NCBI GenBank assembly: GCA_949741605.1
Contig: CATJNB010000057.1
Span: 1 to 57,908 of the forward strand
DNA from: an uncultured Eubacteriales bacterium
GTDB lineage: Bacteria > Bacillota > Clostridia > Oscillospirales > Acutalibacteraceae
DNA length: 57,908 nucleotides
Direction: 5' to 3'
This document shows, piece by piece, positions 1,426 through 44,029 of the stretch (the first letter of the stretch is position 1; the number at the start of each line of letters is the position of its first letter). A model generated the notes under the pieces. The model was not told where the DNA came from, ran no database searches, and saw nothing but the letters and a program-made list of their open reading frames with translations. The position numbers and the translations under genes are program-made.

Positions 1426-1447
1426 ACGCAGGTAAGGAGAAAACTGG

Positions 1448-2470: not shown

Positions 2471-2475
2471 AAACA

Positions 2476-2510
2476 AAAACGCATCCGATACTTTACCGGA
2501 TGCGTTTTTT
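2476..2510. terminator. Bidirectional rho-independent terminator between convergent genes
   Basis: Perfect 12-bp arms aaaacgcatccg / cggatgcgtttt with a 9-nt loop. An A-run lies on the left and a T-run on the right. Confidence 0.75.
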
Positions 2511-2519
2511 CCTGTCTGA

Positions 2520-3617: not shown

Positions 3618-3629
3618 AACACCGTCTCC

Positions 3630-16766: not shown

Positions 16767-16778
16767 GCCTTCCTCTCC

Positions 16779-17516: not shown

Positions 17517-17527
17517 GATATCCACTC

Positions 17528-18454: not shown

Positions 18455-18516
18455 GAGTCTGAATCCCCCTTTATGTTTGTATAATCCCATGCTGCAAAGG
18501 CAACAAAGCGGGAAGA

Positions 18517-19446: not shown

Positions 19447-19474
19447 AGTTCCTCCTAAAATTTGCTGTTTTCCC

Positions 19475-20434: not shown

Positions 20435-20480
20435 ACCATCTTCTCCCTATCTCTCAAATTCACAATACCATAAAACTCTA

Positions 20481-21431: not shown

Positions 21432-21433
21432 CC

Positions 21434-23664: not shown

Positions 23665-23673
23665 AGCCTCACC

Positions 23674-24144
23674 TTAACCCTCTTTAATCAACATAATGGT
23701 CTGGTCATATTCGACCATATCCTCCTGATTGACGAGGATCTTTACAACCTCTCCGGATACCGGCGCAGCAATTTCATTCATCATTTTCATGGCCTCAATG
23801 ATGCACAGGGTCTGGCCCTTTTGTACGCGCTGTCCGATGGTCACAAACGGCGCAGCATCTGGTGCACTTGCCTGATAGAACGTACCGACGACCGGCGACT
23901 TGACGGGTACTTCCCCCGGGTTCTCAAGTTGCACAGCAGAAACAGCAGTTGGACCTGCCTCCAAAACCGGTTCCGGATGGGCCTCAGCTGGAATTAACGT
24001 TGCTTTGGGAGCCTTGAACATTTTATTGATCGTGCTCTCTTTTTCCAGCTTTAAGGATAGATTTTCGATTTCCAGTGTCATTTTATGGATTCCAGACTGG
24101 TCAAACTCCTGTATTAAAGCTTTGATCTCTTCTAAATTCATCAT
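23674..24144 (-). CDS. accB: Biotin carboxyl carrier protein
   Basis: The biotinylation motif EAMKMMNEI is present. Start set at the ATG after AAAGGAG. Confidence 0.92.
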   Translation of the reverse strand: MMNLEEIKALIQEFDQSGIHKMTLEIENLSLKLEKESTINKMFKAPKATLIPAEAHPEPVLEAGPTAVSAVQLENPGEVPVKSPVVGTFYQASAPDAAPFVTIGQRVQKGQTLCIIEAMKMMNEIAAPVSGEVVKILVNQEDMVEYDQTIMLIKEG

Positions 24145-24263
24145 GCAATAAACTCCTTTAATCCCCAAGGCAAACGCGGCCTATCCCTATTTAGGAGGCG
24201 GCGATGCTTGATTTCTACAATAAGCGGGACAAATTGTTTTTCAAAATGGTAAACCTAGCTTTT

Positions 24264-27626: not shown

Positions 27627-29378
27627 TCAGCCTATGTAACGTTTTAACTGTATCAAATCCAGGATGTCCACCACCCCATCTTGATTATAGTCGGCAGCAT
27701 GCCAATAAACCCCTTCAAGCTCCTTCTCGCCCAGCAGATATTCGAATAAATCTGACTCATCCCGGGTATTTACCGTTGCAGAACCATTCAAATCACCGGG
27801 CACCATAATGGTAACAGTATCAATCTGTTTCCCGCTCGGGTCACATAAAGCAATCATCATACCAGTACCGAGCTTACCACTGGAATAAAGCATGCCATTC
27901 GCCCGGCGTACTTCTAACCATCCGGCTCCGGTTTGAATGGTAGACTTTAATTTGGCAACCGTAGTGCCCGGCTCCACAACCATATGCCCCTGTTTTGCAA
28001 TCGCAAATATATCACTGATAATTTTCTTGGGAGTTTCTGGATTGCTGCTCTGGGAAGGCTGCGAACTGGATGCATTCGGAACACTTAAATTCCCACTGGA
28101 AATTTGGGAATTTTCTCCCGCTGGTTCACTCAGAATTTCACTGGGGTTGGAATCGCCCCCGCTTTCTTCCCAGCTGCTTGATGCCGGCTCAGACATCCCG
28201 CTGCTGGACGGTCCTTCCGGCTGGAATACAGGAACATCTGAGAGCAAGATGCGCGAATATCCCACATCGGGATAGAAAAGCAAAATCATGGTATCGTACC
28301 GGTTGCTGGCAAACGATATGATCTCTCCCTTTTGTCCGTCAAACACCACCTTGGCTGGCTGTGATAAATCCTGTAAATCATATTCTCGGATCTGATTATC
28401 CGGGGATTTCACCAAGATCGTACCAGAATCCGTCTGGCAGATTTCTGCCGCCGACCCAGAAAACGGGATGTCTAATTCGGTAAATGTATGATCCTCCTGC
28501 ACAGAGTACAATTTTCCGTCATTGCATACCGCCAAATTTTCATTGACAAAATCAGTCGGAAAAATCAATAAATCTGGGGAGCCTGCGTCTGCCCACGCTA
28601 CCTCAGAAACCGTTTCCTCTGGAAGCCTGTCATCGTCAGGAGCCAGATCCATCCACCAGACTGCTTCTTTCAGTCCGCCATTTGAAAGATCTTGCCCGCG
28701 CAAATACAACCCGCCATCCGGTGTACTGATGATTTTCTCAATCCACCGCTCTCCCAGATCAAATTCCTGAAACCATGTCAATTCGCCCTCGCTCAAATCA
28801 TCCAGTTGAAAAGAATACAGTTTTCCAATCTCCCTGGGGTTGACAAAGTAGAACCGTCCCGATTGATCTGCGGTCAGGCTGATCGGGGAAGAAATGTCAA
28901 CCTGTTCGGACAAAATCCTCCACTGTGAAACAATTTCGTTCCAATGGATGGGCGATGTCTGGCTTAGATCCATGGCTGCCAAAGAATAACAGAAATCAGC
29001 TGATTCTGGATCAACAAGGCTCAGGCTGGTCACAAATAAAAAATCTCCCCGTTGGAATGCAGCATAAGACCCCTCGATATGCAAAGAGGCGTCGGAATTT
29101 TCTGCAAACGTCTGCACGACATCGCCGGACTGGTTCATTTCCACCATAACCGGATTTCCGTTTTCCTCACTCATCCAAAGAAACCCACCGTTCCGCTTGG
29201 GGAATAGACGATGGTTTTGGGAGCCACCCCATTCTTCTTTAAAAAATGTGCCTAAAAATTCATCGTGTCCGCGCCAGGAAAATGCCAGAGCCGTCAGCAG
29301 CACAAAAACACACAACATACCGGTCAGAATCAGGACAAAAATGCGATCATATTTTACAACAAAACTCCTTATTTTCAC
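27627..29378 (-). CDS. Dockerin-containing surface protein with an N-terminal signal/anchor segment
   Basis: 583 aa. The C-terminal type I dockerin has two Ca-binding repeats (GDLNGSATVNTRD..; DYNQDGVVDILDLIQLKRYI). There is also a Ser/Pro-rich linker and an N-terminal hydrophobic segment. GTG start is uncertain. Confidence 0.8.
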   Translation of the reverse strand: MKIRSFVVKYDRIFVLILTGMLCVFVLLTALAFSWRGHDEFLGTFFKEEWGGSQNHRLFPKRNGGFLWMSEENGNPVMVEMNQSGDVVQTFAENSDASLHIEGSYAAFQRGDFLFVTSLSLVDPESADFCYSLAAMDLSQTSPIHWNEIVSQWRILSEQVDISSPISLTADQSGRFYFVNPREIGKLYSFQLDDLSEGELTWFQEFDLGERWIEKIISTPDGGLYLRGQDLSNGGLKEAVWWMDLAPDDDRLPEETVSEVAWADAGSPDLLIFPTDFVNENLAVCNDGKLYSVQEDHTFTELDIPFSGSAAEICQTDSGTILVKSPDNQIREYDLQDLSQPAKVVFDGQKGEIISFASNRYDTMILLFYPDVGYSRILLSDVPVFQPEGPSSSGMSEPASSSWEESGGDSNPSEILSEPAGENSQISSGNLSVPNASSSQPSQSSNPETPKKIISDIFAIAKQGHMVVEPGTTVAKLKSTIQTGAGWLEVRRANGMLYSSGKLGTGMMIALCDPSGKQIDTVTIMVPGDLNGSATVNTRDESDLFEYLLGEKELEGVYWHAADYNQDGVVDILDLIQLKRYIG

Positions 29379-31821: not shown

Positions 31822-32997
31822 TTAAACGAGATATTCCAGCTGGCCGTTTGTGGCAATCAGGCCACGGCTGGCGGTCTGTAATTGCACCGTTGGCGGGCCT
31901 TCCTCAAGCCACATGGCCCGGCAATCTCGATACATGCGTTCGACAGGACCATAAGAACAATCCTCAAAGTAACCAATCCCGCCAAAAATCAACAGCATAT
32001 AATCCGATACCAGACGCACCGTTTCAATACTGAAATATTTTGCCATGGCGGCCTTGGTTTCCGGATCTTTTCCAGCATCAAAATCACGGGCAAAATCATA
32101 GACCATGGTTCGCAGCGCATGGATATAGGTGCCCATTTCCGCGATGTAGCTCTGGATCATCTGGCGTTTGGCAAGGGGCTTTCCAAAGGTGACACGATCC
32201 TTTGCACGCGCAATGGACATTTCCATCATCCGCTGTGCCATACCGAGGTTGCTGACCGCAATGTGTGCCCGGGAAATGGCCAGCGAATGCATGGCTACCC
32301 GCAGCCCGTCCCCCTCTTTGCCCAGGAGATATTTTTCATCCACCCGTACATTGGTAAATTTGAGTTTGGCATGGCCCGCCCCGCGGCACCCCATCAAATG
32401 GGGCATCGGCAGCGTTTCGTAACCGGGGCTATCCACTGGCACAAAAAAGGCTGACAGCCGTTTTTCCTTGGGAGCTTCCGGGTCTGTCACGGCGATCACG
32501 TAAGCAAACTGGCAGCAGTCTGTATGGGAAATCAGGGTTTTTTCGCCGTTCAAAATATAATCTTTGCCATCTTTGACCGCTGTTGTGTGCAAATCCGCAC
32601 CGCTGCCGCCGGATTCCTCCGTAAGGGCAAAGCAAGTGAAAATGCTCTTATCCTGGAATTTATCCATATAAGACTGTTTGAGCTGTTCGCTCCCGAACTG
32701 GTCAAGAATCCGCCAGTTTAAATCCATGGCATAATGCAGGTGCATCCGCATCCCGCCCGGCCCACGGCTGAATTCTTCCTGTACCTGTAAAATTTGCAGT
32801 TCACTCAGGCCAAACCCGCCATATTCTTCCGGCAGGGCACAACGGTATAAATCATGCTCCTGTGCCAGACGGTAAAATTCATCCGGGAAATGGTTGGTGA
32901 CTTCCACCTCTTTTTGCATCTCCTCAAACGGCCCCTCGGCCAAGGCGCGGATTTTTTTCAAATAAGCGTCAAATTCCTGTGGTGTCAATGTACTCAT
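31822..32997 (-). CDS. Acyl-CoA dehydrogenase family protein (ACAD1)
   Basis: 391 aa with the ACAD fold (ALTEESGGSGAD, GxxG, C-terminal WLEEGPPTVQ in place of YEGTxxIQ). Its start overlaps the ligase stop (ATGA). Confidence 0.88.
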   Translation of the reverse strand: MSTLTPQEFDAYLKKIRALAEGPFEEMQKEVEVTNHFPDEFYRLAQEHDLYRCALPEEYGGFGLSELQILQVQEEFSRGPGGMRMHLHYAMDLNWRILDQFGSEQLKQSYMDKFQDKSIFTCFALTEESGGSGADLHTTAVKDGKDYILNGEKTLISHTDCCQFAYVIAVTDPEAPKEKRLSAFFVPVDSPGYETLPMPHLMGCRGAGHAKLKFTNVRVDEKYLLGKEGDGLRVAMHSLAISRAHIAVSNLGMAQRMMEMSIARAKDRVTFGKPLAKRQMIQSYIAEMGTYIHALRTMVYDFARDFDAGKDPETKAAMAKYFSIETVRLVSDYMLLIFGGIGYFEDCSYGPVERMYRDCRAMWLEEGPPTVQLQTASRGLIATNGQLEYLV

Positions 32998-34637
32998 ATC
33001 GCTTCTCCTTTTGCTGCACGGTCCGACAAACCCATCCGTTTGGCAATGTCCTTGTGCAGTACATATTTCTTGATCTTCCCGGAATCGGTCCGGGGCAGTT
33101 TTTCCACAATTTCAAGGCGTTCCGGCCACTGCCATTTGGGAACTTCGTTTTCTTTCAAACAGGCAAGCAGGTCGTTCAGGGAAAAGGTTGCTACCTCCGG
33201 CTTTAACACCGCATACGCACAAATCCTCTCCCCCAGCCGTGCGTCCGGCATCCCAATGACGGTGTGTTCTGCAAAGGCTGGGCAAGCATCCAGATTTTCG
33301 TCGAGCTGGTTGGCGTTCAGGTTCTCCCCGCCTCGGATAATGACATCCTTCAGACGTCCGGTAATCCGCAAATATCCTTCCGGATTCTGCACGCACAAAT
33401 CGCCGCTGTGGAACCAGCCATCTGCATCAAAGGCCTGCGCCCCTCCGGTATAACCGACAAATACATTGGGGCCGCGCGAAATTTCTTCGCCTTCCTCCCC
33501 CATGGCAACGTCCTTCCCGTCAGGGCCGACCACCCGTACTTCCACCCCTTCCACCGGACGCCCCGAAACGGTGCCGTTTAAACGCAGGGTCTCCGATGGC
33601 GGGACATATAAATGCGGCGTACTCTCGGTCGACCCGTACACCTCACACAGTAAAATTCCAAACTCCCATGCCCGTTGTACCAAGGCTCCCGGGACTGGTG
33701 CGCCCCCGCATAAATAAAACCGCAGATCCGGCAGCGATTGTCCTGTTGCTTCGAGTTCCCGGAGAATATCATAAATAAAGGTGGTCGCGCCCATCGAATA
33801 CGTGCAACGTTCGCGGCGCATCAGCTCGACGGCCTGCGCCCCTGCAAACCGCTGCTGTAATACCACCCGCGCACCCATCATCATGGTAGCAATCAGGCCA
33901 TGTTGAAATCCAGTTGCATGGTTCAGCGGAGAGGGCATGAACATCACATCTTCTTTGGTCAGCCCAAGCTCTAAATTAAATTGTTTTTCACTGAACACAA
34001 TATTATTATGGGTCAGCATCGCGCCCTTGGATACCCCCGTGGAACCCGACGTGCAAAGCAAGACTGCTACATCATCGGCATCGCACGGGCACCACTCCTG
34101 CAATGGCTCAAACTGCAGGAGTACCTCGCTCCATGCAGGGCAATCCCCCTGTTTTTCCCGGTCATGGTCGAGCAGAAGGACCTGCTTTAAACAAGGCATT
34201 TCGTGTAAAAAGCGTACCGCATTGGTTTCAAAATCGTGATTGCGGAAGCTGGTCGGGCACACAAACAGGGATGGTTGATGAAGGTTTAAAAAATAAACCA
34301 GATCCCTGTGTTCATAGGTGACGGAAATCGGATTGAGTACTGCCCCCACCTTCAGGCACGCCATGGCCAAAACAGCAAATTCTGCCCAGACCGGCGACTG
34401 GCAGGCAACAATATCCCCGCGCGCAACCCCGCTCTCCTTCAAAAACGACGCCACCTGTGAGGACATCCGATCAATCTCACGGTAAGAATACCGGTATCCG
34501 CGGCTGTCTGTGATATATTCGCGCTCCGGATAGGTTTTTACGGTTTCCTGCCAATAATCCAGAAGGGTACGGCTACTCCAGTAGCCTTTTTCGTAATATT
34601 CCTGTTTTTGCTCCTGTCGAATCTGTGCCTGTAACAA
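32994..34637 (-). CDS. Adenylate-forming acyl/aryl-CoA ligase (AMP-binding family)
   Basis: Motifs TSGSTGVSKG, GWFHSGDL, RLKDVIIRGGENL and PRTDSGKIKK. The preferred start is the TTG at 34637 after GGAAGGTGA. The ORF-track start at 34745 lies inside a conserved noncoding element. Confidence 0.85.
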   Translation of the reverse strand: MLQAQIRQEQKQEYYEKGYWSSRTLLDYWQETVKTYPEREYITDSRGYRYSYREIDRMSSQVASFLKESGVARGDIVACQSPVWAEFAVLAMACLKVGAVLNPISVTYEHRDLVYFLNLHQPSLFVCPTSFRNHDFETNAVRFLHEMPCLKQVLLLDHDREKQGDCPAWSEVLLQFEPLQEWCPCDADDVAVLLCTSGSTGVSKGAMLTHNNIVFSEKQFNLELGLTKEDVMFMPSPLNHATGFQHGLIATMMMGARVVLQQRFAGAQAVELMRRERCTYSMGATTFIYDILRELEATGQSLPDLRFYLCGGAPVPGALVQRAWEFGILLCEVYGSTESTPHLYVPPSETLRLNGTVSGRPVEGVEVRVVGPDGKDVAMGEEGEEISRGPNVFVGYTGGAQAFDADGWFHSGDLCVQNPEGYLRITGRLKDVIIRGGENLNANQLDENLDACPAFAEHTVIGMPDARLGERICAYAVLKPEVATFSLNDLLACLKENEVPKWQWPERLEIVEKLPRTDSGKIKKYVLHKDIAKRMGLSDRAAKGEAI

Positions 34638-34702
34638 TCCATCACCTTCCGCTGTTTTTTGCCGGATTTTCCAGCATACTCCTTTTATCTTATCGCATTT
34701 AT

Positions 34703-34740
34703 CCATTTTTGTATAATACAATCTCAAAATATGTTTAATC
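34703..34740 (-). promoter_or_regulatory. Conserved 38-nt element A with TTGTATAATACAA palindrome
   Basis: 36/38 identical to 43849-43886. The palindrome is at 34709-34721. Confidence 0.6.
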
Positions 34741-34765
34741 CTCATCCATAGTCTTTCCCTATCAA

Positions 34766-34802
34766 TGCAAAAAAGCTTTCGGAAACCAACCTCCGAAAGC
34801 TT
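34766..34802 (-). terminator. Terminator of the MBL-fold hydrolase gene
   Basis: 11-bp perfect arms aagctttcgga / tccgaaagctt. The minus-strand RNA is followed by UUUUGCAUU. Confidence 0.7.
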
Positions 34803-34814
34803 CTTTCTGTTCCT

Positions 34815-35819
34815 CTATTCCCGGCGTACCCACCAATACCACATACCATCGCTTTGCCAGACTTGCACAACCCCGCGCCGTACCAGCTCATCCAGACACG
34901 ACAGCGTATTCGCCAAACGGAAATGCGTTTTCAAAAGTTCCTCCTGGACAAATGCCTGTGGTTCGTACCGGAACGCCTGCTGGATGACTTGTGCGAGCGT
35001 CAAGGCACGATCGGAATTTGCCAGTACATCGGCGACCTTTTGCAGCATATGCACAAAATAACGTTTGGTATTCTGTACGGCTTTTTTCGTCCCATAAAAT
35101 GGATTGTAATGGCCGGGAACCACCCAATAATCCGAAAATTCCTGTACAAAACGGTCTAAGGTTTGGAGGTGGAGATGCAGAAGCTCCGCCCCCGGCCGCA
35201 GCGATGCCAAAATTAATACCTGACGTTTGCTTAACGTATCGCTGCTGAACAGCCATTTATGTGAGCGTTCCACCAAACCCATCTGATGCTGGGTATGCCC
35301 TGCGAGAGATATCACCTCAAAATCATATCCGCCATACGCCAAATGTTCCCCTTCCTGCACATCCGTCACTGGGTACCCCGTCCATGGGTAATCCTGATAC
35401 TGGTAGTCCGGCAGGAACGTGCGTTGGATTAGGGATTGTATGTGCTTTGGCGAAAAACCGTAGCTCAAAAGCAGCGGGGAAACCTGTTCGTGCGGCTTTG
35501 CGTAATACAGGTTCCCAATGGGGCAGGACTGTGTTTCCTCCTGCTTCATGAGGATCTGTGCGCCCTGTTCGCTCAACCATTTTGCCAGCCCTGCATGGTC
35601 AGGATGGTTATGAGTCACAAACACATCCAAGTTCTCCCAAGGGATCCTTAAATGGTGTAACACCCGGGTGACGTGTTCCCGGCTTGCCCGGTTGCAAAAC
35701 CCAGCGTCCACTAACAAACTGCGGGGCTGGCCATGGATCAGGTACAAGTTGGATGCCCGGATCTTTGGGGAATCCCATGACGATTTGATCCGGTAAATAT
35801 TTTCTGCTACATTTTTCAC
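34815..35819 (-). CDS. MBL-fold metallo-hydrolase with a C-terminal winged-helix-like domain
   Basis: HNHPDHAG metal motif. The preferred start is the GTG at 35819 after GGAAAGG. The alternative GTG at 35843 lies only ~12 nt from the -10 box. Confidence 0.82.
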   Translation of the reverse strand: MKNVAENIYRIKSSWDSPKIRASNLYLIHGQPRSLLVDAGFCNRASREHVTRVLHHLRIPWENLDVFVTHNHPDHAGLAKWLSEQGAQILMKQEETQSCPIGNLYYAKPHEQVSPLLLSYGFSPKHIQSLIQRTFLPDYQYQDYPWTGYPVTDVQEGEHLAYGGYDFEVISLAGHTQHQMGLVERSHKWLFSSDTLSKRQVLILASLRPGAELLHLHLQTLDRFVQEFSDYWVVPGHYNPFYGTKKAVQNTKRYFVHMLQKVADVLANSDRALTLAQVIQQAFRYEPQAFVQEELLKTHFRLANTLSCLDELVRRGVVQVWQSDGMWYWWVRRE

Positions 35820-35854
35820 AATGTCCCGCCTTTCCTGTTGCACTTTTCCTTCTC

Positions 35855-35883
35855 ATTATAGGAAATCTCAAGGCAAAATGCAA
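35855..35883 (-). promoter_or_regulatory. Promoter TTGCAT-17-TATAAT for the MBL gene
   Basis: Read on the minus strand: perfect -10, 17-nt spacer. Confidence 0.55.
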
Positions 35884-35968
35884 GGATTCCAACCCCATCC
35901 TGCGCGCAGATTTAGGGAGATTGCCAAAATTGACCTAGTGTATTGTGGGATTGCTGGCAGTTCTGCTA

Positions 35969-35997
35969 TTGATTTTACCAAAATCTTATGTTATAAT
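35969..35997 (+). promoter_or_regulatory. Promoter TTGATT-17-TATAAT for the flavoenzyme-lysR1 operon
   Basis: Perfect -10 and 17-nt spacer. The palindrome AATGATATCATT (36005-36016) lies 7 nt downstream. Confidence 0.55.
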
Positions 35998-36063
35998 ATC
36001 CATAAATGATATCATTAAATCCGTTTATGGAACAACGCTTCCAAACCGGGAAAGGGGACTCCC

Positions 36064-38082
36064 ATGATTGAACCACTCTTGCAACCCATTTCCATTGGGC
36101 CATGCCCGATCAAAAACCGCTTTGTCATGACCGCCGCCAGCCTGTGCCGCTGTACCGATGGTCTGGTCAACCACGAAACCATTGATTTTTACAAAGCCCG
36201 CGCCAAAGGTGGTACTGGCCTGTTGATTGCAGGCGCTGCTGGCATTGACCCGCATCGCCGCAGCCGCAGCGGTATGATGCAGATTTGTGAGGACACCTTT
36301 CTTCCCGGCCTGCGCCATTTGACCGAGGCAGTCCATCAGGAAGGCTCAAAAATTTTCCTCCAACTGCTCCATCCCGGTGCCTACGCGTCCCCAAAAGAGT
36401 ATGGAGAATCTGCCCCCTTAGCACCATCGGCTTATGTAAGCGGTCTGACCGGCATCCAAACCACTGAAATGACCATATCCCAAATTCAGGAAATAATTGG
36501 ATATTTCGCACAAGCCGCCGTACGTACCCGTGAGGCAGGCTTTGATGGCGTAGAATTATGTGCCAGTGTGGGCTATCTGATTGCTGAATTTTTGTCATCC
36601 GCAACCAACCACCGCACCGATTCTTATGGAGGTTCCCTGGAAAACCGGATGCGTTTCCTATTAGAAATAGCAGATGCCGTCAAAGAGGCAGCCGGACAGG
36701 ATTTCCCCCTGATGGTACGCCTCTCTGGAGCCGACCTCATCCCAAATGGCAATGCTATGGACGATTTTGTCGGCATCGGCAAAGCGCTTGAGGAGCATGG
36801 TGCCGACGCAATCAGTGTGACCGGCGGATGGCATGAATCCCGAATCCCACAGATCACCGCACAAGTGCCGCAAGGGGCTTACCGCTTTTATGCGCGGGTA
36901 CTAAAACAGCAGATATCCATTCCTGTGGTGGCCTGCAACCGCATGAACCTTTCCATCGGACGGCAGGCACTTTTGCAGGGGGACTGTGATCTGGTTGGTA
37001 TGTGCCGCCCCTTACTGGCTGACCCTGAGCTTGTCAACAAATTTGAGCAAAATCGTACCCGGGAAATTTACCACTGCCTGTCCTGTAACCAAGAATGTCT
37101 GGACCGTGTGTTTGGCGGGATGCCAGTAGGCTGTACAATAAACCCAAAGATCGGCCATGAAACACAGCCATCCCAGTGCCGGGACCATGGAAAAAAGATC
37201 CTCGTGATCGGCGCCGGAATCAGTGGCCTTGTATATGCAGGGGCAGCGGCTGCGGATAACGAAGTTACCGTCTGGGAAAAATCTGGGTATTTCGGCGGTG
37301 CGGGACGTATCCTGTTCCAGCTTCCCAACTGGCACGACGGGAAAGCCTATCTGGATGCGCTCTATCAAACCTGTCTCCGTCAAGGAGTAACATTCCGCTG
37401 GCATCAGGATGCCACCCCTGCCCTGCTCCAAACCCTTCTCGAAACGCATGTTTATGATAAAATCGTAATCGCAACCGGCGCACAATTGGGCACACCGGAC
37501 TTCCCCATGGAGGATGGTGCGAAAGTTTGCTCCATGCAGGAATGGATGGAAAAAGACTGGCCTCTTGCTCCACATACTGTCATTCTTGGAAACGACTTCC
37601 GCGCTTTGGAATTTGCCCTGTTTTGTGCGAAAAAAGCAGGCACCGCGGCTCCCGAATCCGCCTTTTATGCAGAATGGTTCCCTCCATTCCCGCCGCCAAC
37701 AGTCCACCATTGTGTACCATCTGTCACCTGTATAGGGCCTCATCGAAAACCTGGTGCCGGGATGGCAAAAAGTGTATTATGGGCGGTACTCAAAGAAGCC
37801 AGACATTCCAACCTGAACCTGATCTCAGAAGCAACGGTGCATCATATTTCCCCTTCAGAAGTCCTGTTCCAACAGGGTGACAACTTGCAAAGCATCCCTG
37901 CTGATCTCGTAATTTTAGCGCACAACTGGCGACCCTCAAAACTGGCATCGCAACTCCCTTCCCTGCCCGCCGAATTGCAAGACCGTATTACCGTCATTGG
38001 GGATGCCAAAGCCCCCGCCCGGATCACCCAAGCCGTACAAACCGCACTGGCTGCCGCCATGGATCTGCCCAAAACATTCTGA
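36064..38082 (+). CDS. OYE-type FMN + [4Fe-4S] + FAD/NAD(P) oxidoreductase (2,4-dienoyl-CoA reductase / enoate reductase / BaiCD-BaiH family)
   Basis: 672 aa with an N-terminal Oxidored_FMN fold, a Cys motif CLSCNQEC-x11-C, and the Rossmann motif KKILVIGAGISGL. Confidence 0.88.
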   Translation: MIEPLLQPISIGPCPIKNRFVMTAASLCRCTDGLVNHETIDFYKARAKGGTGLLIAGAAGIDPHRRSRSGMMQICEDTFLPGLRHLTEAVHQEGSKIFLQLLHPGAYASPKEYGESAPLAPSAYVSGLTGIQTTEMTISQIQEIIGYFAQAAVRTREAGFDGVELCASVGYLIAEFLSSATNHRTDSYGGSLENRMRFLLEIADAVKEAAGQDFPLMVRLSGADLIPNGNAMDDFVGIGKALEEHGADAISVTGGWHESRIPQITAQVPQGAYRFYARVLKQQISIPVVACNRMNLSIGRQALLQGDCDLVGMCRPLLADPELVNKFEQNRTREIYHCLSCNQECLDRVFGGMPVGCTINPKIGHETQPSQCRDHGKKILVIGAGISGLVYAGAAAADNEVTVWEKSGYFGGAGRILFQLPNWHDGKAYLDALYQTCLRQGVTFRWHQDATPALLQTLLETHVYDKIVIATGAQLGTPDFPMEDGAKVCSMQEWMEKDWPLAPHTVILGNDFRALEFALFCAKKAGTAAPESAFYAEWFPPFPPPTVHHCVPSVTCIGPHRKPGAGMAKSVLWAVLKEARHSNLNLISEATVHHISPSEVLFQQGDNLQSIPADLVILAHNWRPSKLASQLPSLPAELQDRITVIGDAKAPARITQAVQTALAAAMDLPKTF

Positions 38083-38096
38083 AAGGAGACCTCCTC

Positions 38097-38987
38097 ATGA
38101 ATTTAGCCCAGCTCCATTATTTCCGCAAGCTTGCCCAGCTCGAACATTATACCCAAGCTGCTCAGGAATTGTTTATCAGCCAACCCAGCTTGAGTGCGTC
38201 CATTTCTGCCATGGAAGACGAACTGCATATTAAACTGTTCCAGAAAAAGGGCAGGAATGTCCGCCTGACGAAAGATGGCAAAGAATTTTATGCGTATGTG
38301 TGCCGGGCGCTCGACACCTTGCAGGACGGCATTGATACCGCATGGGAACGCGGCGGCCTGCTCAGTGGCCAGATGGATCTCGCCTGTTCGCCATCGCTTC
38401 TTCTGGACTTTGTTCCCGAACTCATCGCCAATTATCAGGCACAGTCCCACACAAAAATGCGGTTTCAATTTCATAGTATCCGGTCGGCTCAGGAAATGGC
38501 GTGTGGGATCACTGAGAACCTTTACGACGCCGCTTTCTCGACAGACCCAGCTCCCGCCCCCATGCTCTCGATCCCCTTATGCACCCAGAAATTATCGGTA
38601 TTTGTACATCCGAACCATCCCCTAAACCGGAAACAAAACCTATGCCTTTCCGATCTTTCATCCTATCCCATCCTGACGTGCAAGGCAAATACCCCCACTG
38701 GCCACATCATCCACAATATGCTGGGACAGTCTGGGTTGTCTGCTTCCCAGACCTTTGACGATGAAATGACCATTTACGGCTATTTATCCCACAATCAGGA
38801 ACTGATTGCCATTGCCCCGGAAAGCCCTGTTCTCACGCATACCCTAACTGCCCTGCCTGTGTGTGGGATGCCAGAAAACCTGCTTCCAATTTATCTCATT
38901 TACAGCAAGGAAAACCACATTTCCAAAGCAGCCCGGCAATTTTTAACCTTTGTGCAGGAAGGGTTCCCTACCTCTAAAATTGCATAA
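38097..38987 (+). CDS. LysR-family transcriptional regulator (LysR1)
   Basis: HTH N-terminus MNLAQLHYFRKLAQLEHYTQAAQELFISQPSLSASISAMEDEL. It starts 14 nt after the flavoenzyme stop. Confidence 0.92.
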   Translation: MNLAQLHYFRKLAQLEHYTQAAQELFISQPSLSASISAMEDELHIKLFQKKGRNVRLTKDGKEFYAYVCRALDTLQDGIDTAWERGGLLSGQMDLACSPSLLLDFVPELIANYQAQSHTKMRFQFHSIRSAQEMACGITENLYDAAFSTDPAPAPMLSIPLCTQKLSVFVHPNHPLNRKQNLCLSDLSSYPILTCKANTPTGHIIHNMLGQSGLSASQTFDDEMTIYGYLSHNQELIAIAPESPVLTHTLTALPVCGMPENLLPIYLIYSKENHISKAARQFLTFVQEGFPTSKIA

Positions 38988-39004
38988 TCTGCCTGCCAAT
39001 TCCA

Positions 39005-39066
39005 ATACAAAAAGGTAAGGTTTTCTTCCGTATGGAATCACAGAAGAAAACCTTACCTTTTTGTAT
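39005..39066. terminator. Long perfect inverted repeat (24-bp arms); probable bidirectional terminator
   Basis: atacaaaaaggtaaggttttcttc (39005-39028) pairs with gaagaaaaccttacctttttgtat (39043-39066), with a 14-nt loop. Confidence 0.7.
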
Positions 39067-39079
39067 GTCCCAAACTGTT

Positions 39080-40309
39080 TTATGGGATGTATTTTTTCAA
39101 AATGATACTCGAATTTTGTCCGCCAAACCCAAACGCATTACTCATACAAATCGAAGTTTCCTGTCGGCGGGCCTGTTTGGCAATATAGTCCAAATCACAG
39201 GCTGGGTCAGGGATGTCCAGATTGAGCGTCGGCGGGAGGATGCCATGCTGCATGGCTAAAATACAAATCATAGCTTCGGTCACGCCGCCTGCTCCCATCA
39301 TATGACCGGTTGCCCCTTTGGTGGAACTCACCAGCGGCGGATGTTCCCCGAATACCTGCCGGATCGCAGCAGTTTCTGCAATGTCCCCAGCTTTGGTGCC
39401 GGTGCCGTGTGCATTGATATAATCCACTTGATCCGCTGTAATCCCTGCACGCTCCAACGCTTTTTCCATACACACCGCTGCGATCCTGCCATCTGCGCGA
39501 GGTTCCGTGACATGGTAAGCATCCGAATTATTGGCCCATCCCAACAGCTCCGCCAAAATCTGTGCCCCGCGCCGACGGGCATGTTCCTCGGTTTCCAGCA
39601 CGAGCGCACCCCCGCCTTCCCCGATTACAAACCCGTCCCGCCCCGCATCAAACGGGCGGCTGGCCTTCTGCGGCTCATCGTTGCGGTGTGAGAGGGCGCG
39701 GGTATTGGTCAGGCTGTGTACCACCAGTGGGCATAAAATGGATTCCGACCCCACTGTCACGACCGCATCGGCCTCGCCTGCCAACAGCAACATCGCAGCA
39801 GTCGCAAGAGCGTCGCCCCCAGACGAACATGCCGTGGATACTGTCAGGCTCGGCCCTTGGATGCCCTTGGCAATGGCGATTTTTGCCGCCGCCACGTTCC
39901 CCAGCACCTTTGGGATAAACCGTGCCCCCACACGTTTTTTCGTCAGGCAAGTAAGCTGTTCCTGCGTGGCGGCAATGGTGGAAATTCCGCTCATTGATGT
40001 CCCCATCACAATGCCGGTACGTCCGCTCTCTGCCGGAAGCGCACCATCGCCTAAGGCTTCCAGTGCGGCTATGTAAGCATATTGCATAAAAGGGTCTGAT
40101 TCACGGATCAGGTTTTTGGGTAAATATTTCGCCGGATCATACATGGTAACCTCTGCTGCAATGCGTACCTCCATATCGGATGCATCAAAACGTGTGATTG
40201 GCGCTACCCCGCATTTGCCAGCAATCAGATTGTCCCAGAACTCCCGCACCCCAATCCCAATTGGCGTGACCGCCCCCATACTTGTGATAACTAACCGTGT
40301 TTGTTTCAT
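39080..40309 (-). CDS. Beta-ketoacyl synthase, FabF-like paralog (KS1)
   Basis: 409 aa with Cys-His-His motifs VSTACSSG, AYHVTEP and INAHGTGT, and C-terminal NAFGFGGQNSSI. Confidence 0.9.
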   Translation of the reverse strand: MKQTRLVITSMGAVTPIGIGVREFWDNLIAGKCGVAPITRFDASDMEVRIAAEVTMYDPAKYLPKNLIRESDPFMQYAYIAALEALGDGALPAESGRTGIVMGTSMSGISTIAATQEQLTCLTKKRVGARFIPKVLGNVAAAKIAIAKGIQGPSLTVSTACSSGGDALATAAMLLLAGEADAVVTVGSESILCPLVVHSLTNTRALSHRNDEPQKASRPFDAGRDGFVIGEGGGALVLETEEHARRRGAQILAELLGWANNSDAYHVTEPRADGRIAAVCMEKALERAGITADQVDYINAHGTGTKAGDIAETAAIRQVFGEHPPLVSSTKGATGHMMGAGGVTEAMICILAMQHGILPPTLNLDIPDPACDLDYIAKQARRQETSICMSNAFGFGGQNSSIILKKYIP

Positions 40310-40371
40310 GAACCGTTCCTCCCGTTGCCCGGCGGCGTGTGGCCAGTCCGGTAAGAATCCGTCGGATTGTC

Positions 40372-40400
40372 TTTACAAATCCATGCGAGTATTATATACT
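40372..40400 (+). promoter_or_regulatory. Candidate lysR2 promoter TTTACA-17-TATACT
   Basis: 17-nt spacer. It overlaps the opposite-strand KS1 promoter. Confidence 0.4.
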
Positions 40401-40406
40401 TATTTC

Positions 40407-40435
40407 ATTATACGGGTCGCGGCGCGTGTTGTCAA
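40407..40435 (-). promoter_or_regulatory. Perfect consensus promoter TTGACA-17-TATAAT for KS1
   Basis: Read on the minus strand, both hexamers are perfect. It lies ~90 nt upstream of the KS1 start. Confidence 0.7.
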
Positions 40436-40463
40436 ATGGCGCGGCCAGCAAGGAGGGCTCCTT

Positions 40464-41363
40464 TTGGACCTGAATCAGGTAAATAATTTTCTATCCGTTG
40501 CCCAAACCCTCAGCTTTTCCGGCGCGGCCCGGCGCAATGGGGTGCCGCAGTCAACGGTGAGCCGCCATATCAGCGATCTGGAATCCGAATTAGGGGTAAA
40601 GTTATTTTACCGTACCAAACGCGACGTAAAGCTCACTGGGGAAGGGCGCGCCTTTCTGCCCTATGCCAAGGAAATATTAGAAACGGCCCGCAAAGCCAAC
40701 CATGTTGTCAAACAGCTGCATGAGGGCGGCCAAGGACGCCTGTCCATTGCCACTGTGGTAACCTCCAGCCATGCTCTGTGCAGCTGCCTGCGGGAATTTG
40801 GCAAGCGGTACCCGGAAATCCTTGTGGATATCACTTATGTATCCGCGGTCGAACCAGAGTGGGAAGAACGCGAGGACCGGTATGATTTCCATTTCCTGAA
40901 CCTCGACCTGCTTCCCGAAGGGGATGATTTTGATTATCTTGTCACGCACACCGACCATCTTGGGGTTGTCACTCAAAAAGGGCATCCGCTCACCCACAGC
41001 CCATTGGATTTCTCTGCGCTCAAAGCCGAAAAATTCATTGTTCTTTCGGAGGAGGAAAGCCCTCTGTTGTATATGCAAATTCTCGATGTCTGCCGGGCGC
41101 ACCACTTTACCCCGCAAATTCTCAACCGCTTCGATACAGTGAAATCCATTTTACTGTCCGTCGGTGCTGGGCTTGGGGTCAGTATGCTGCCACTGGCAAT
41201 CCCAGAAACCATTTTCCCGTCTTTAGTGGATGTGATCCCGATTGACGATATGGATACCAGTATCACCTATGTAGCAGCGTGGAAAAAAGAAATGCTCAAT
41301 CCCGCCGCTGTCCTGTTTCTCGATGTGATGCGTGAAACCCTCCCCCCGCAAGGGCAACGTTAA
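40464..41363 (+). CDS. LysR-family transcriptional regulator (LysR2)
   Basis: TTG start 6 nt after AAGGAGGG. HTH LNQVNNFLSVAQTLSFSGAARRNGVPQSTVSRHISDLESEL. The 116 upstream codons of the ORF track are antisense to KS1. Confidence 0.88.
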   Translation: MDLNQVNNFLSVAQTLSFSGAARRNGVPQSTVSRHISDLESELGVKLFYRTKRDVKLTGEGRAFLPYAKEILETARKANHVVKQLHEGGQGRLSIATVVTSSHALCSCLREFGKRYPEILVDITYVSAVEPEWEEREDRYDFHFLNLDLLPEGDDFDYLVTHTDHLGVVTQKGHPLTHSPLDFSALKAEKFIVLSEEESPLLYMQILDVCRAHHFTPQILNRFDTVKSILLSVGAGLGVSMLPLAIPETIFPSLVDVIPIDDMDTSITYVAAWKKEMLNPAAVLFLDVMRETLPPQGQR

Positions 41364-42610
41364 ACCGCCGGAACATACCGCCCAAAAATCAAACTCGCGT
41401 TTTGCCCGCCAAATCCAAACGTATTATTCATGGCAATGTCCACTGCCGATTTCCTCGCTTGGTTCGGGACAAAATCCAAATGCTGACAGGCAGGGTCAGG
41501 CTCTTGATGATGGATCGTTGGTGGAAGGATGCCGTCCCGGATGGCCAGCAGGCAGGCAATGCTTTCCACAATGCCTCCTGCCCCCATCATGTGGCCAGTT
41601 GCCCCCTTGAGCGAACTGATCGGGACCTTTGCCGCATGATCTCCAAAAAGGGCTTGGAACGCTTGACATTCCATTTCGTCCCCTTTGACTGTCCCAGTGC
41701 CATGCGCGTTGACATAATCAATGTCATGAACCGTCAGCCCTGCATTCTCCAGCGCTAATTGCATACAGGCTCTCCCGCCTTCCGCACTCGGTGTCGTGAT
41801 GTGGAAGGCGTCATTATTATTGGCACTCCCCAATAATTCCCCGTAAATATGTGCGCCCCGCGCTTTGGCATGTTCCTCGGTTTCCAGCAGTACCGCACCG
41901 CCCCCTTCACCAATCGCAAAGCCATTGCGTTTTTGGTCAAACGGACGTGCCGCACAAAGAGGGTTTTCCGGGTCATGTGCAAGAATATGAGACGATGCCA
42001 GCGACGAAATCACAATCGGGCATTCAATCGCATCGCTTCCCATGGCTAACATCGCATCAGCCGCTCCGCCACGCAGCATGGCCGCCGCCAGAGTAATGGC
42101 ATCGTCCCCGGACGCACAGGCGGTATTCAGGGTAAAACTTGGCCCCCCCAGCCCGTGTGCAATCGCGACTTGGCACGCCGCCATATTCCCCAGCACTTTC
42201 GGGACAAACCCCGGGCTGACCTTTTTGTGTCCCTGACAGAATTCCTGTTCCGTTTCGGCAATATCAGCCACACCGCCCATAGCAGTCCCCATGACAACGC
42301 CAATCCGGCTGCCACCGCCCTGATAACCACTGTCTTGCAGTGCTTGTGCCGCCGCTACATAAACATACTGGGTAAATAAGGGCATCCGGGACGCGAGCTT
42401 GCGTGGGATATAGGATTCAGCATCAAAATTCTGGATTTCTGCCGCTATCTTGATGGGAAGTTCGGATACATCAAACCGTGTGATTTCAGAAAGCCCGCTT
42501 TTCCCTTGCAGCAGGTTCTCCCAAAACGCCGACACCCCAATCCCAATCGGGGTCACTGCCCCCATCCCTGTCACGACAATCCTGGTTCCCGGCTTATGCC
42601 TGTGCGTCAT
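41360..42610 (-). CDS. Beta-ketoacyl synthase, FabF-like paralog (KS2)
   Basis: Start at the ATG at 42610 after GGAGGG. Cys-His-His motifs LNTACASG, AFHITTP and VNAHGTGT. It overlaps the ACAD2 stop by 17 nt. Confidence 0.9.
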   Translation of the reverse strand: MTHRHKPGTRIVVTGMGAVTPIGIGVSAFWENLLQGKSGLSEITRFDVSELPIKIAAEIQNFDAESYIPRKLASRMPLFTQYVYVAAAQALQDSGYQGGGSRIGVVMGTAMGGVADIAETEQEFCQGHKKVSPGFVPKVLGNMAACQVAIAHGLGGPSFTLNTACASGDDAITLAAAMLRGGAADAMLAMGSDAIECPIVISSLASSHILAHDPENPLCAARPFDQKRNGFAIGEGGGAVLLETEEHAKARGAHIYGELLGSANNNDAFHITTPSAEGGRACMQLALENAGLTVHDIDYVNAHGTGTVKGDEMECQAFQALFGDHAAKVPISSLKGATGHMMGAGGIVESIACLLAIRDGILPPTIHHQEPDPACQHLDFVPNQARKSAVDIAMNNTFGFGGQNASLIFGRYVPAV

Positions 42611-43790
42611 AACCGCCCTCCAAATATTCCAATGCCCCATTGGTCTGGAGCAAACCACGGGCAGCAGTCAGCTTGAGTACCGTTGGAGGGCCTTCCTCCA
42701 GCCAAGTAACACGGCAATCCCGATACAGGCGTTCCACTGGGCCGAGTGCACAATCTTCAAAGTAGCCAATACCTCCAAAAATTAACAGCATATAGTCGGA
42801 TACTTTTTGGGCGGTCAGGATACTGAAATATTTTGCCATAGCCGCTTTGGTTTCATGTTCTTTGCCGGCATCGTAATCGCGTGCAAAATCGTAGAGCATC
42901 GTCCGCAGGGCATGGATGTAAGTCCCCATTTCCGCAAGGTAGCTCTGGATCATCTGACGCTGTGCGAGAGGTTTGCCAAACGTTACACGCTCCTTGGCAC
43001 GCGCCACAGAAAGTTCGAGCATGCGCTGGGAAATGCCGAGATTGCTCACCCCAACGTGTGCCCGCGACACAGCCAGCGAATGTACCGCAATCTCCAGCCC
43101 CTGCCCTTCTTTCCCAATCCGGCAGCTTTCCGGGACACGCAGGTTGGTAAACCGCAGCTTCCCATATCCCGCTCCCCGGCATCCCATCGGGCGAGGCATC
43201 GGCAATACTTCCAACCCCGGTGTATCCATCGGGATCAGGAACGCCGATAAACGGTCATCTTTTTTGCTCTCCGGGTTGGTTACAGCAAACACATACGCAT
43301 AATTGGCATATAGGGCATACGAAATTAATGTTTTTTCTCCCTGGATGATATAGCCGTCCCCATCCCGTACTGCGGTGGTGTGCAGGTCAGCGCCTGTACC
43401 ACCGGTTTCCTCGGTGAGGCCAAAACAGGTAAAGACAGTGGCGTCCAGCATTTTAGGCAGATATTCCCGCTTTTGCTCCTCCGAACCAAAATCATACAAA
43501 ATCCGCCAGTTCATACCCATGGCATAATGCAGATACATGCGCATCCCGCCCGGCCCACGGCTGTACTCCTCTTGTACCTGCACCAGTTCCAGATCGTTCA
43601 TCCCGTACCCGCCATATTCCTGCGGCAGCGCACAACGGTAAATCCCGCTTTCCTGCACGAGTTCAAAAAAACGCTCCGGGAAACGGTCAGTTTGTTCGAC
43701 TTCCGGCTCAAGCTGCTCAAACTCCCCTTGCGCTAACGTCCGAATTTTTTTCAGGTACGTCTGGAATTCTTCCTTTTTAAAAATACTCAT
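42594..43790 (-). CDS. Acyl-CoA dehydrogenase family protein (ACAD2), paralog of ACAD1
   Basis: 398 aa. 61 of the first 100 residues are identical to ACAD1 by eye. The C-terminal WLEEGPPTV motif is shared. Confidence 0.88.
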   Translation of the reverse strand: MSIFKKEEFQTYLKKIRTLAQGEFEQLEPEVEQTDRFPERFFELVQESGIYRCALPQEYGGYGMNDLELVQVQEEYSRGPGGMRMYLHYAMGMNWRILYDFGSEEQKREYLPKMLDATVFTCFGLTEETGGTGADLHTTAVRDGDGYIIQGEKTLISYALYANYAYVFAVTNPESKKDDRLSAFLIPMDTPGLEVLPMPRPMGCRGAGYGKLRFTNLRVPESCRIGKEGQGLEIAVHSLAVSRAHVGVSNLGISQRMLELSVARAKERVTFGKPLAQRQMIQSYLAEMGTYIHALRTMLYDFARDYDAGKEHETKAAMAKYFSILTAQKVSDYMLLIFGGIGYFEDCALGPVERLYRDCRVTWLEEGPPTVLKLTAARGLLQTNGALEYLEGGYDAQA

Positions 43791-43848
43791 ATTTTGAAAT
43801 GTTCTCCTTTTGGTTGCTTTTTCTATCCTTCTATTGTATTTTATTTTT

Positions 43849-43886
43849 CCATTTTTGTATAATACAATATCAAAATGTGTTTAATC
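43849..43886 (-). promoter_or_regulatory. Conserved 38-nt element B with TTGTATAATACAA palindrome
   Basis: 36/38 identical to 34703-34740. The palindrome is at 43855-43867, 58 nt upstream of the ACAD2 start. Confidence 0.6.
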
Positions 43887-44029
43887 GAGATTCATAGGCA
43901 AAAGATATCAATTCATGGAGTTTCCCACACGAAATTTGTCTTTTCGGCTTGCTTTTCATGCGGTGTTATGTTACACTGAAGGGGTTAATTCTCCGCGCTA
44001 TCTTTATAGTATGAAAGGATTGATTGGAT

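Follow-up and report, generated by a model that had tools for sequence, protein, structure and literature searches.

We analysed a 57,908-nucleotide stretch of contig CATJNB010000057.1 from an uncultured Eubacteriales bacterium (hereafter the window), and within it an island at 31822-43790 in which nine genes are organized into six transcription units. They code for two ketosynthases (KS1 and KS2), two paralogous flavoproteins of the acyl-CoA dehydrogenase (ACAD) fold, which belong to a family that we call ACADx, a CoA ligase, a flavoenzyme with an old yellow enzyme (OYE) FMN domain, a hydrolase of the metallo-β-lactamase (MBL) fold and two LysR-type transcriptional regulators (LTTRs), LysR1 and LysR2 (Table 1). 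An earlier note on this DNA had proposed this gene set, and the open reading frame (ORF) list together with Pfam and NCBIfam profile searches recovers all nine genes with the domains that it named. The fine structure given there was likewise found in the sequence: the ligase and ACAD1 genes overlap by ATGA, those of ACAD2 and KS2 overlap by 17 nt, and exactly 61 of the first 100 residues of the two ACADs are identical (68.5% over the full length). For the ligase gene its presence and domains stand, but translation probably begins at the TTG at 34637, which gives 547 aa, and not at the ATG at 34745: in the long ORF the conserved promoter takes up the first ~36 codons, and only from residue 41 onward is there an alignment to the family models.

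Table 1. Genes and control elements of the island, with positions in the window
Feature	Position	Strand	Basis or remark
ACAD1, ACAD-fold flavoprotein (ACADx family)	31822-32997	-	second gene of ligase operon; three ACAD domains
FadK-type medium-chain acyl-CoA ligase	32994-34637	-	ORF reaches 34745; AMP-binding and AMP-binding_C domains
Ligase-ACAD1 promoter/operator	34680-34769	-	exact box TGTATTATACAAAAATGGA at 34702-34720, ATAG-N7-CTAT before it
Hairpin terminator after MBL gene	34773-34802	-	sequence
MBL-fold di-metal hydrolase, monocistronic	34815-35843	-	Lactamase_B domain
MBL promoter TTGCAT-17-TATAAT	35855-35883	-	read in sequence; kept in L006
OYE-LysR1 promoter TTGATT-17-TATAAT	35969-35997	+	followed by inverted repeat TCCATAAA-N17-TTTATGGA
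FadH/NCR-type OYE-FMN, [4Fe-4S], FAD flavoenzyme, 672 aa	36064-38082	+	Pfam
LysR1 (LTTR), co-transcribed with OYE gene	38097-38987	+	HTH_1 and LysR_substrate domains; 14-nt gap after OYE gene
Bidirectional hairpin terminator LysR1/KS1	39005-39066	.	27-nt arms, 96% complementary
KS1, FabF-derived ketosynthase	39080-40309	-	ketoacyl-synt N and C domains
KS1/LysR2 divergent control region	40372-40435	.	KS1 promoter 40407-40435 (-), LysR2 promoter 40372-40400 (+)
LysR2 (LTTR), divergent from KS1	40464-41363	+	profile search; conservation
KS2, FabF-derived ketosynthase, translationally coupled to ACAD2	41360-42610	-	profile searches, overlap
ACAD2, ACAD1 paralogue	42594-43790	-	profile searches, 68.5% identity
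ACAD2-KS2 promoter/operator	43826-43915	-	exact box 43848-43866 overlaps -35 of TATACA-17-TACAAT
Mini-ORFs	43856-43845, 34710-34699, 40385-40374	-	from box end ATGGA

A scan of the genome collection with KS2 returned 15 loci, which were annotated by tblastn with the window proteins. The order ACAD2-KS2 / LysR2 / KS1 / LysR1-OYE / MBL / ligase-ACAD1 recurs in a Clostridiales metagenome-assembled genome (MAG; locus L006), an Acutalibacteraceae MAG (L010) and an Oscillospiraceae MAG (L012). In L028 this order is kept with five genes inserted between KS1 and LysR1-OYE, and in L007 the block is present in part, so that it is found in at least five other Oscillospirales genomes. Identities between orthologues span 44% (MBL) to 92% (ACAD1): ACAD1 is 80-92% identical to its island orthologues, and LysR2 is the most conserved regulator at 73-83%. 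The translational coupling of ACAD2 to KS2 is present in every island-bearing species. In L006, L010, L012 and L028 a third KS followed by a second AMP-ligase (KS3-ligase2) stands beside ACAD2. As the flanking genes differ between the window and L006, L007, L010, L012 and L028, it is the block itself that is conserved, and this synteny bears out the co-conservation of the genes on which the proposal of a common function had been made to depend.

A second line of evidence comes from the control regions. Those of the ligase and ACAD2 form a 90-nt direct repeat with 77% identity, and each contains an exact copy of the 19-nt box TGTATTATACAAAAATGGA, which includes the dyad TTGTAT-N-ATACAA, a T-N11-A site. 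The box is exact upstream of both genes in every orthologous island that has them, against a chance expectation of 0.01 per window, and an alignment of ten upstream regions places it in a footprint of ~75 nt in otherwise diverged DNA, which also includes ATAG-N7-CTAT and a conserved -10. In both cases the promoter is TATACA-17-TACAAT, with a weak -35 that the dyad overlaps. The KS1/LysR2 region bears a variant of the box, GTATATAATAC (40389-40399) along with ATGGATTTGTAAAG, with 0-4 mismatches in the orthologues; it lies just downstream of the KS1 -10 and also over the divergent LysR2 promoter. The TTGACA-17-TATAAT promoter that had been read before KS1 matches the consensus at 12/12 positions. 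Of the six transcription units at least three have the conserved operator in common, which ties the KS and the ACAD/ligase genes into one regulon. With regulators of the HTH_1 and LysR_substrate type, a divergent target and a shared T-N11-A dyad, the layout is, to judge from the sequence, that of a classical LysR-type regulon. LysR2 is most likely the binder of the TTGTAT-N-ATACAA box, a prediction that we make from its divergent orientation to KS1 and from its conservation, the highest among the regulators. The position of the box at the -35 of the two ACAD operons suggests activation, and its position over the KS1 transcription start and the promoter of LysR2 itself suggests repression and autoregulation. 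Taken together, the synteny and the shared operator support the view that the island is one conserved functional unit rather than a chance neighbourhood.

As to the remaining units, the MBL gene has its own TTGCAT-17-TATAAT promoter and hairpin terminator, as the earlier note had it, and the -10 region of OYE-LysR1, TATGTTATAATATCCA, is kept in all six species. A search for RNA elements in the conserved leaders yielded none, Rfam matching only tRNAs at the window ends. When the metagenome collection was scanned with the 19-mer, 40 loci were retrieved, of which only L055 and L057 have island genes; the other 38, which lack them, are taken to be chance matches. The box ends in ATGGA, which in many copies opens a three-codon mini-ORF: MEK-stop at ACAD2, MDK-stop in most ligase copies and MDL-stop at KS1. 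These are probably incidental to the operator, because no Shine-Dalgarno sequence precedes them.

Both ketosynthases have the two-domain thiolase fold and the catalytic set of the FabF family, keeping Cys163, His303, His340, Lys335, Asp265, Thr270, Phe400 and the GFGG loop (E. coli FabF numbering). The full Cys-His-His triad that had been claimed for them is confirmed, and on these residues both appear to be catalytically complete. Basic residues matching FabF R127/K128/R206 are mostly kept, and would be compatible with docking of an acyl carrier protein (ACP). KS1 shares 53% identity with KS2, and the two share 39-42% with the FabF encoded elsewhere in the window. Their clade carries the signatures F202L, ACxSGxDA, GATGHMMGAGG and GFGGQN, and the contrast between GATGHMMGAGG and its housekeeping FabF counterpart, which the earlier note had remarked upon, is real. 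With the fabF equivalog model TIGR03150 (cut-off 493.75) KS1 scores 487.6 and KS2 475.9, both below the threshold, and they pass only the subfamily model PRK07314; the nearest structures are the Listeria and Bacillus FabF (376 and 360 bits). A neighbour-joining tree with 100 bootstraps and E. coli FabB as the outgroup unites KS1, KS2, the third KS and the ligase-adjacent KS of Oscillospirales in one clade with 100% support. The window FabF, a FabF from a fab operon (L018) and a second Butyricicoccus KS form a neighbouring group with 61-77% support, which is weakly (52%) its sister. The island paralogues hence fall outside the clade of housekeeping FabF proteins from this and related genomes, and neither lies in a fab operon, their neighbours being ACAD and LysR genes.

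Ketosynthases of the same clade are also found next to a ligase: as KS-297aa-ligase in L008 and L009, as KS-ligase in L013-L017 and as KS-ligase-FabF-LysR in Butyricicoccus pullicaecorum (L021). This adjacency is the strongest contextual argument that the KS would take what the ligase activates. Such pairs occur in many Oscillospirales without any ACAD (L008 9995-13795, L009, L013-L017, L021 10001-15173), some of them with the 297-aa protein. The L008 KS passes the fabF equivalog cut-off at 514.7 bits, and such genes are therefore likely to be annotated as plain FabF. We also checked whether ligase2 might be read as an acyl-ACP synthetase; its nearest structures are generic CoA synthetases of the FadD13 type, which do not discriminate.

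The island ligase narrowly misses the cut-off of the FadK model NF004758 (710 bits against 736) and is 50-53% identical to Clostridium ligases that score 891 bits with it; a relative in Sporomusa is named fadK by PGAP. Its runner-up family is the cyclohexanecarboxylate-CoA ligase TIGR03208, at 406 bits with a cut-off of 792. The best curated families of ACAD1 lie far below their cut-offs, and the family models give no orthology of the ACADs to cyclohexanecarboxyl-CoA enzymes either (181-193 against 650 for NF043006; 146-162 against 575 for TIGR03207); CarC (6fah_C) is a distant match at 165 bits. Both proteins have three ACAD domains and keep the catalytic Glu, in ACAD1 within a WLEEG motif, so that they may carry out ordinary dehydrogenation. 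They thus have the domains and the Glu of ACADs that depend on an electron transfer flavoprotein (ETF), and a nearby ETF partner was not found within the window; as the island encodes no ETF, the ACADs may not act as ordinary dehydrogenases. A precedent is BbuA, an ACAD-family flavoprotein that carries out a redox-neutral elimination to an enoyl-CoA without ETF or added mediators (PMC8364193).

A homology search with ACAD2 revealed strong conservation of the ACADx family among cultured anaerobes. In Clostridium autoethanogenum/ljungdahlii, C. saccharobutylicum, Acetobacterium and a gut species, a homologue is the first gene of a conserved operon with the order ACADx, type III CoA-transferase, Bcd-like ACAD, EtfB, EtfA, in some cases a major facilitator superfamily (MFS) transporter, FadK-type ligase and a 175-aa Cys-rich protein; genes for a LysR and an MFS transporter adjoin it. 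The ACADx of these operons is 77-78% identical to ACAD1 in two Clostridium loci and 67-78% across the three loci compared. No homologue of the 175-aa protein was found in the window or the island loci. Such operons were seen at L023 10001-19990, L025, L026, L032, L033 and L074/L076, the last being a Sporomusa plasmid (NZ_CP036260.1, 60234-77763). On this plasmid, from Sporomusa termitida, the operon is expanded by a short-chain dehydrogenase/reductase (SDR), an alcohol dehydrogenase and a UbiD-family decarboxylase. Apart from it, a plasmid search with ACAD1 gave Rhodococcus matches at 43-44% identity, and the one that was inspected (H2) is a generic ligase/SDR/thiolase cluster. By their gene content the ACADx operons look like a CoA loop of the caffeate-respiration type, which would indicate CoA-bound chemistry on an imported acid. 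Since EtfBA follows the other, Bcd-like ACAD, the ACADx itself may not be an ETF-linked reductase. That the relatives of the ligase-ACAD module sit in operons with a CoA-transferase, Etf and MFS transporters favours an imported acid handled as its CoA ester over de novo assembly.

The best match of the OYE protein in the PDB is the E. coli 2,4-dienoyl-CoA reductase FadH (1PS9, 309 bits), with 31% identity, followed by naphthoyl-CoA reductase (NCR; 6qkg, 281 bits). Aligned to E. coli FadH, it keeps the CxxCxxxC-x11-C cluster, Tyr166, His252, the OYE-FMN domain and the FAD motif. Of the FAD-NAD(P) label that it had been given only the FAD half can be retained, the second dinucleotide motif being degenerate. 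The architecture also recalls trimethylamine dehydrogenase, an enzyme that hands its electrons to an external carrier. In the MBL protein the metal ligands (HxHxDH, GHT, D, H) are invariant in 12 homologues. The nearest structures to its AlphaFold2 model (pLDDT 91.6) are uncharacterised (5u8o, 6ao1, 5i0p, 2zo4), followed by LACTB2, a paraoxonase and PqsE, the last being the first characterised thioesterase among the structural neighbours, at a TM-score of 0.57, 17% identity and an E-value of about 4e-14, with no match at the sequence level. For the suggestion that the enzyme is a thioesterase, the metal ligands are there; the fold lends it no specific support. Thirteen relatives of the MBL protein were found, and those that we checked in the fetched loci are the MBL genes of islands.

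The island was said to encode no ACP, ketoreductase (KR), dehydratase (DH), thiolase, phosphopantetheinyl transferase or transporter, and this holds when intergenic gaps, motifs in small ORFs and profile matches over 31822-43790 are considered. A hidden ACP is excluded because the gaps are too short and the scan of small ORFs for the ACP motif came up empty. Neither a hydratase/3-hydroxyacyl-CoA dehydrogenase nor a thiolase was found in the island or the rest of the window. The housekeeping fabF (15525-16766) closes an accB-accC-accD-accA-fabH-fabK-fabD-fabG-fabF cluster at 15525-24168, ~8 kb from the island, whose enzymes for the type II mode of fatty acid synthesis (FAS II) could serve the missing functions in trans; this cluster is itself without acpP and fabZ. 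Comparison with the defining features of each system supports the earlier view that the gene set is neither FAS II, nor a minimal type II polyketide synthase (PKS), nor β-oxidation. FAS II is rejected with the KS below the fabF equivalog cut-off and outside the fab operon. A minimal PKS is rejected as both KS keep the Cys, leaving no chain length factor, sit in different operons and have no ACP beside them; with the PKS model PRK07103 they score 250-261 against a cut-off of 445. For β-oxidation the ligase and the ACADs are present, but the hydratase/dehydrogenase and thiolase steps were not found in the window. Prodigiosin-type PigA/PigJ chemistry was dismissed for low scores and want of a carrier protein, and the bai bile-acid operon for a BaiCD score of 325 against a cut-off of 825. 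In the NCBIfam search all of the island proteins stay below the curated equivalog cut-offs, and the libraries and literature searched yielded no characterised pathway that matches the gene set; a literature search for genes of ω-cyclohexyl lipids in the rumen likewise found nothing relevant.

The surroundings of the island and of its orthologues also deserve mention. The G+C fraction is 0.523 in the island (31822-43790) and 0.484 and 0.490 in the flanks. Together with the differing flanks and the 78% identity of ACAD1 to Clostridium proteins, this hints at a possible horizontal transfer of the island; no mobility genes adjoin it. A xylose-isomerase-like gene to its right had been considered as a link to shikimate and turned out to encode endonuclease IV. 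Farther away in the window, a type I dockerin domain ends a 583-aa protein (27627-29378), and an 873-aa protein (6119-8740) fuses a flippase-like polysaccharide-biosynthesis domain to leucine-rich repeats. The insertion in L028 (14741-17508) consists of a third LysR, a MerR, two flavodoxin-like genes and a nitroreductase. The L028 species is abundant in metagenomes, and its ACAD2 orthologue (P0138) is indexed in 255 blocks of the assembly collection. In L007, the segment upstream of ACAD2 (73-5725) encodes a 3-deoxy-D-arabinoheptulosonate 7-phosphate (DAHP) synthase, a xylose-isomerase-like TIM-barrel protein and two Fe-S flavoenzymes of the BaiCD/FadH type with intact NAD motifs. The DAHP synthase was tried as a further shikimate link, which lost weight because the enzyme is of the ordinary AroF/G type and not seen in the other species.

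From the gene content, the synteny, the shared operator and the separate KS clade, all of which are observed, we infer every catalytic step of the route that we tentatively prefer, at somewhat less than an even chance: a LysR-controlled pathway that would prime dedicated FabF-type ketosynthases with a tailored acyl-CoA and borrow ACP, KR, DH and enoyl reductase from FAS II. The FadK-type ligase would convert a free acid, probably medium-chain or alicyclic and probably taken up from the gut or rumen, to its CoA thioester. The two ACADx flavoproteins would then create or shift an unsaturation beside the thioester, by dehydrogenation or by an ETF-independent elimination or isomerisation, and the FadH/NCR-type Fe-S flavoenzyme would reduce the resulting conjugated enoyl- or dienoyl-CoA. 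KS1 and KS2 would take the tailored acyl group as a primer and condense it with malonyl-ACP, with FabG, FabK and FabD (for malonyl-ACP) coming from the FAS II cluster, and with an ACP and a dehydratase encoded beyond the window. Thioester cleavage, in product release or proofreading, is the probable task of the MBL hydrolase; this is the weakest of the assignments. For the substrate, an alicyclic acid, for instance cyclohexanecarboxylate, is an appealing conjecture, because ring carboxyl-CoAs are the substrates of the characterised enzymes that come next-best to the ligase, the ACADs and the OYE protein.

Several points weigh against this route. The normal substrate of FabF-type enzymes is acyl-ACP and not acyl-CoA, and how the acyl group would reach the KS cysteine is not evident from the genes. 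Profile searches and a motif scan found no ETF, ACP or FabZ anywhere in the 58-kb window. In all six OYE orthologues compared (the window, L006, L007, L010, L012 and L028) Val replaces Glu164 and LGNDFRA stands in place of the FadH NADPH motif IGCGGIG, which puts the substrate and the electron donor in doubt, the latter perhaps not being NAD(P)H. The MBL and OYE-LysR1 units have no copy of the shared box, so that it is from synteny that their membership in the same regulon is argued; they also evolve faster (44-68% identity) and may form a separate sub-module. L007 keeps the block and lacks ligase-ACAD1 at this position, and the Clostridium relatives look like reductive catabolism rather than lipid synthesis.

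Other explanations were weighed as well. One that we consider doubtful follows the logic of the Pseudomonas quinolone signal, with a small diffusible product built on CoA (a β-keto acid, methyl ketone or pyrone) that is sensed by a LysR and autoinducing. The ligase would activate an acid, a KS would join it with a malonyl thioester into a β-ketoacyl thioester, and the MBL enzyme would hydrolyse this as PqsE does. Here the component classes do parallel pqsA/pqsD/pqsBC/pqsE/pqsR (ligase, condensing enzymes, MBL hydrolase, LTTR), and the place of PqsE among the structural neighbours, the LTTR-type promoters at the two ACAD operons and the lack of an ACP in the island would all fit; yet the KS are of the FabF and not the FabH type, the likeness to PqsE is one of fold, with uncharacterised MBL proteins matching much better, no exporter is encoded, and the ligase-ACAD relatives sit in uptake or catabolic operons. 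Nor need the island serve a single pathway. It might be a mosaic whose modules work independently, namely an acid-CoA pathway of reductive or detoxifying function and, beside it, spare FabF isozymes, for instance ones that elongate exogenous fatty acids or confer tolerance to FabF inhibitors. The boxless MBL and OYE-LysR1 units, the five-gene insertion in L028, L007 without ligase-ACAD1, the ligase-ACAD modules without KS in Clostridium and Acetobacterium and the KS-ligase pairs without ACADs would all be expected of a mosaic. We regard this as unlikely, since translational coupling of ACAD2 and KS2 is found in every species, and since ACAD2-KS2 and ligase-ACAD1 have the same exact operator, of which KS1 has a variant.

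A narrower form of the preferred priming route, which we also see as unlikely, takes the acid to be a cyclohexane-, cyclohexene- or cyclohexadiene carboxylate, imported or derived from quinate/shikimate: the ligase, the two ACADs and the FadH/NCR-type enzyme would interconvert ring CoA esters, and the KS would build ω-cyclohexyl fatty acids from cyclohexanecarboxyl-CoA. In Streptomyces the pathway from shikimate to this CoA ester, reportedly described by Skyrud and colleagues in 2020, is said to combine reductases with a ligase and an ACAD-like FAD dehydratase. As their next-best characterised relatives the ligase, the ACADs (in their case cyclohexane-1-carbonyl-CoA dehydrogenase) and the OYE protein have enzymes that act on ring carboxyl-CoAs, but the scores are far below the curated cut-offs and generic butyryl/acryloyl-CoA enzymes outscore these relatives for the ACADs. 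In Syntrophus two distinct ACADs reduce 1,5-dienoyl- and 1-enoyl ring CoAs (PMC8805022), no enzymes are said to be known for the reductive metabolism of quinate in the gut (PMC11602726), the Sporomusa homologue adjoins a CoA-transferase and a UbiD decarboxylase, and several island-bearing genomes are rumen MAGs, judged from their RUG isolate names. Against this, the L007 DAHP synthase looks like an ordinary housekeeping enzyme and is not seen in the other species, no SDR of the ChcA type is present, and the known producers of ω-cyclohexyl lipids prime with FabH. Quite improbable is the bolder extension that gut and rumen Oscillospirales turn cyclohexane- or cyclohexene-carboxylate, perhaps derived from dietary quinate or shikimate, into ω-cyclohexyl lipids by means of ETF-independent ACAD-fold enzymes, a FadH/NCR-type reductase acting on the CoA ester and dedicated FabF-type KS; the Clostridium, Acetobacterium and Sporomusa operons would then be a respiratory, reductive version of the same ring chemistry. 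Very improbable indeed is an anaerobic synthesis of unsaturated fatty acids in the manner of FabX, with the ACAD yielding a cis-3-enoyl medium-chain thioester that the coupled KS elongates as FabB does. The clostridial enzyme that introduces the double bond is reported to be unknown (PMC2700279), FabX offers the precedent of a flavoenzyme that is a dehydrogenase/isomerase (PMC8626469), and ACAD2 and KS2 are translationally coupled. The island is, however, sporadic and not general in Clostridia, the ACADx orthologues lie in catabolic-type operons with CoA-transferases, Etf and transporters, LysR-inducible control would be odd for a housekeeping function, and the FadH-like enzyme, the ligase and the MBL hydrolase would be left without a role.

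While every protein family in the island is known, we found no described pathway for their combination. What is new is that two or three FabF-derived KS are coupled with acid-CoA ligases, ETF-less ACADs and a flavoenzyme of the FadH/NCR type, all without a carrier protein and under a single, very strongly conserved LysR-type operator. Should the tailored-primer route be correct, anaerobes would divert environmental acids into their own lipids through dedicated condensing enzymes of the elongating type; should the substrate be alicyclic, the island would supply genes for the gut route from quinate to cyclohexanecarboxylate, the enzymes of which are reported as unknown (PMC11602726). A by-product of this analysis is an uncharacterised operon, widespread in acetogens, clostridia and gut Firmicutes, which shares the key ACADx flavoenzyme with the island. 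With few genes and a 19-bp operator that is kept exactly, the system lends itself readily to experiment.

Comparison with known systems helps to place these observations. With the housekeeping FabF, KS1 and KS2 have in common the fold and the Cys-His-His/Lys/Phe/GFGG apparatus, and their fabF scores lie just under the cut-off; they differ from it in sequence (39-42% identity), clade, neighbours (ACAD or ligase genes) and LysR control. FabY and PA3286 of Pseudomonas aeruginosa are condensing enzymes that shunt acyl-CoA into FAS II with malonyl-ACP, FabY being of the KAS I/II type. The island KS can be likened to them by this described function only, and no ACADs, FadH-like enzyme or MBL hydrolase are linked with FabY and PA3286. 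E. coli ydiFO-ydiQRST-fadK, taken with FadH, likewise brings together a ligase of the FadK type, an ACAD and an Fe-S flavoenzyme of the FadH type, and its CoA-transferase and EtfBA are found again in the Clostridium, Acetobacterium and Sporomusa operons; the island differs from this module in having no hydratase/dehydrogenase, thiolase or Etf, and in an OYE protein with 31% identity to FadH. The ACADx operons outside Oscillospirales are also akin to CarABCDE of caffeate respiration in Acetobacterium woodii, in which a CoA-transferase loop with a priming ligase precedes reduction of the enoyl-CoA by an ACAD with EtfAB. Syntrophus aciditrophicus reduces ring CoAs in an ETF-dependent manner with two different ACADs in sequence (PMC8805022). 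Compared with both of these, the island has KS genes, a FadH-like enzyme and an MBL hydrolase in place of a CoA-transferase, a Bcd-like ACAD and Etf. The ETF-free ACAD fold of BbuA, the γ-butyrobetainyl-CoA trimethylamine-lyase, could explain ACADs without Etf, the likeness being one of fold; ACAD1 and ACAD2 keep the canonical Glu and may also be ordinary dehydrogenases. With pqsABCDE/PqsR, lastly, the island shares a CoA ligase, condensing enzymes, an MBL-fold hydrolase, in PqsE a thioesterase, and a LysR-type regulator, whereas the pqs pathway uses condensing enzymes of the FabH type on anthranilate and has no ACAD or OYE.

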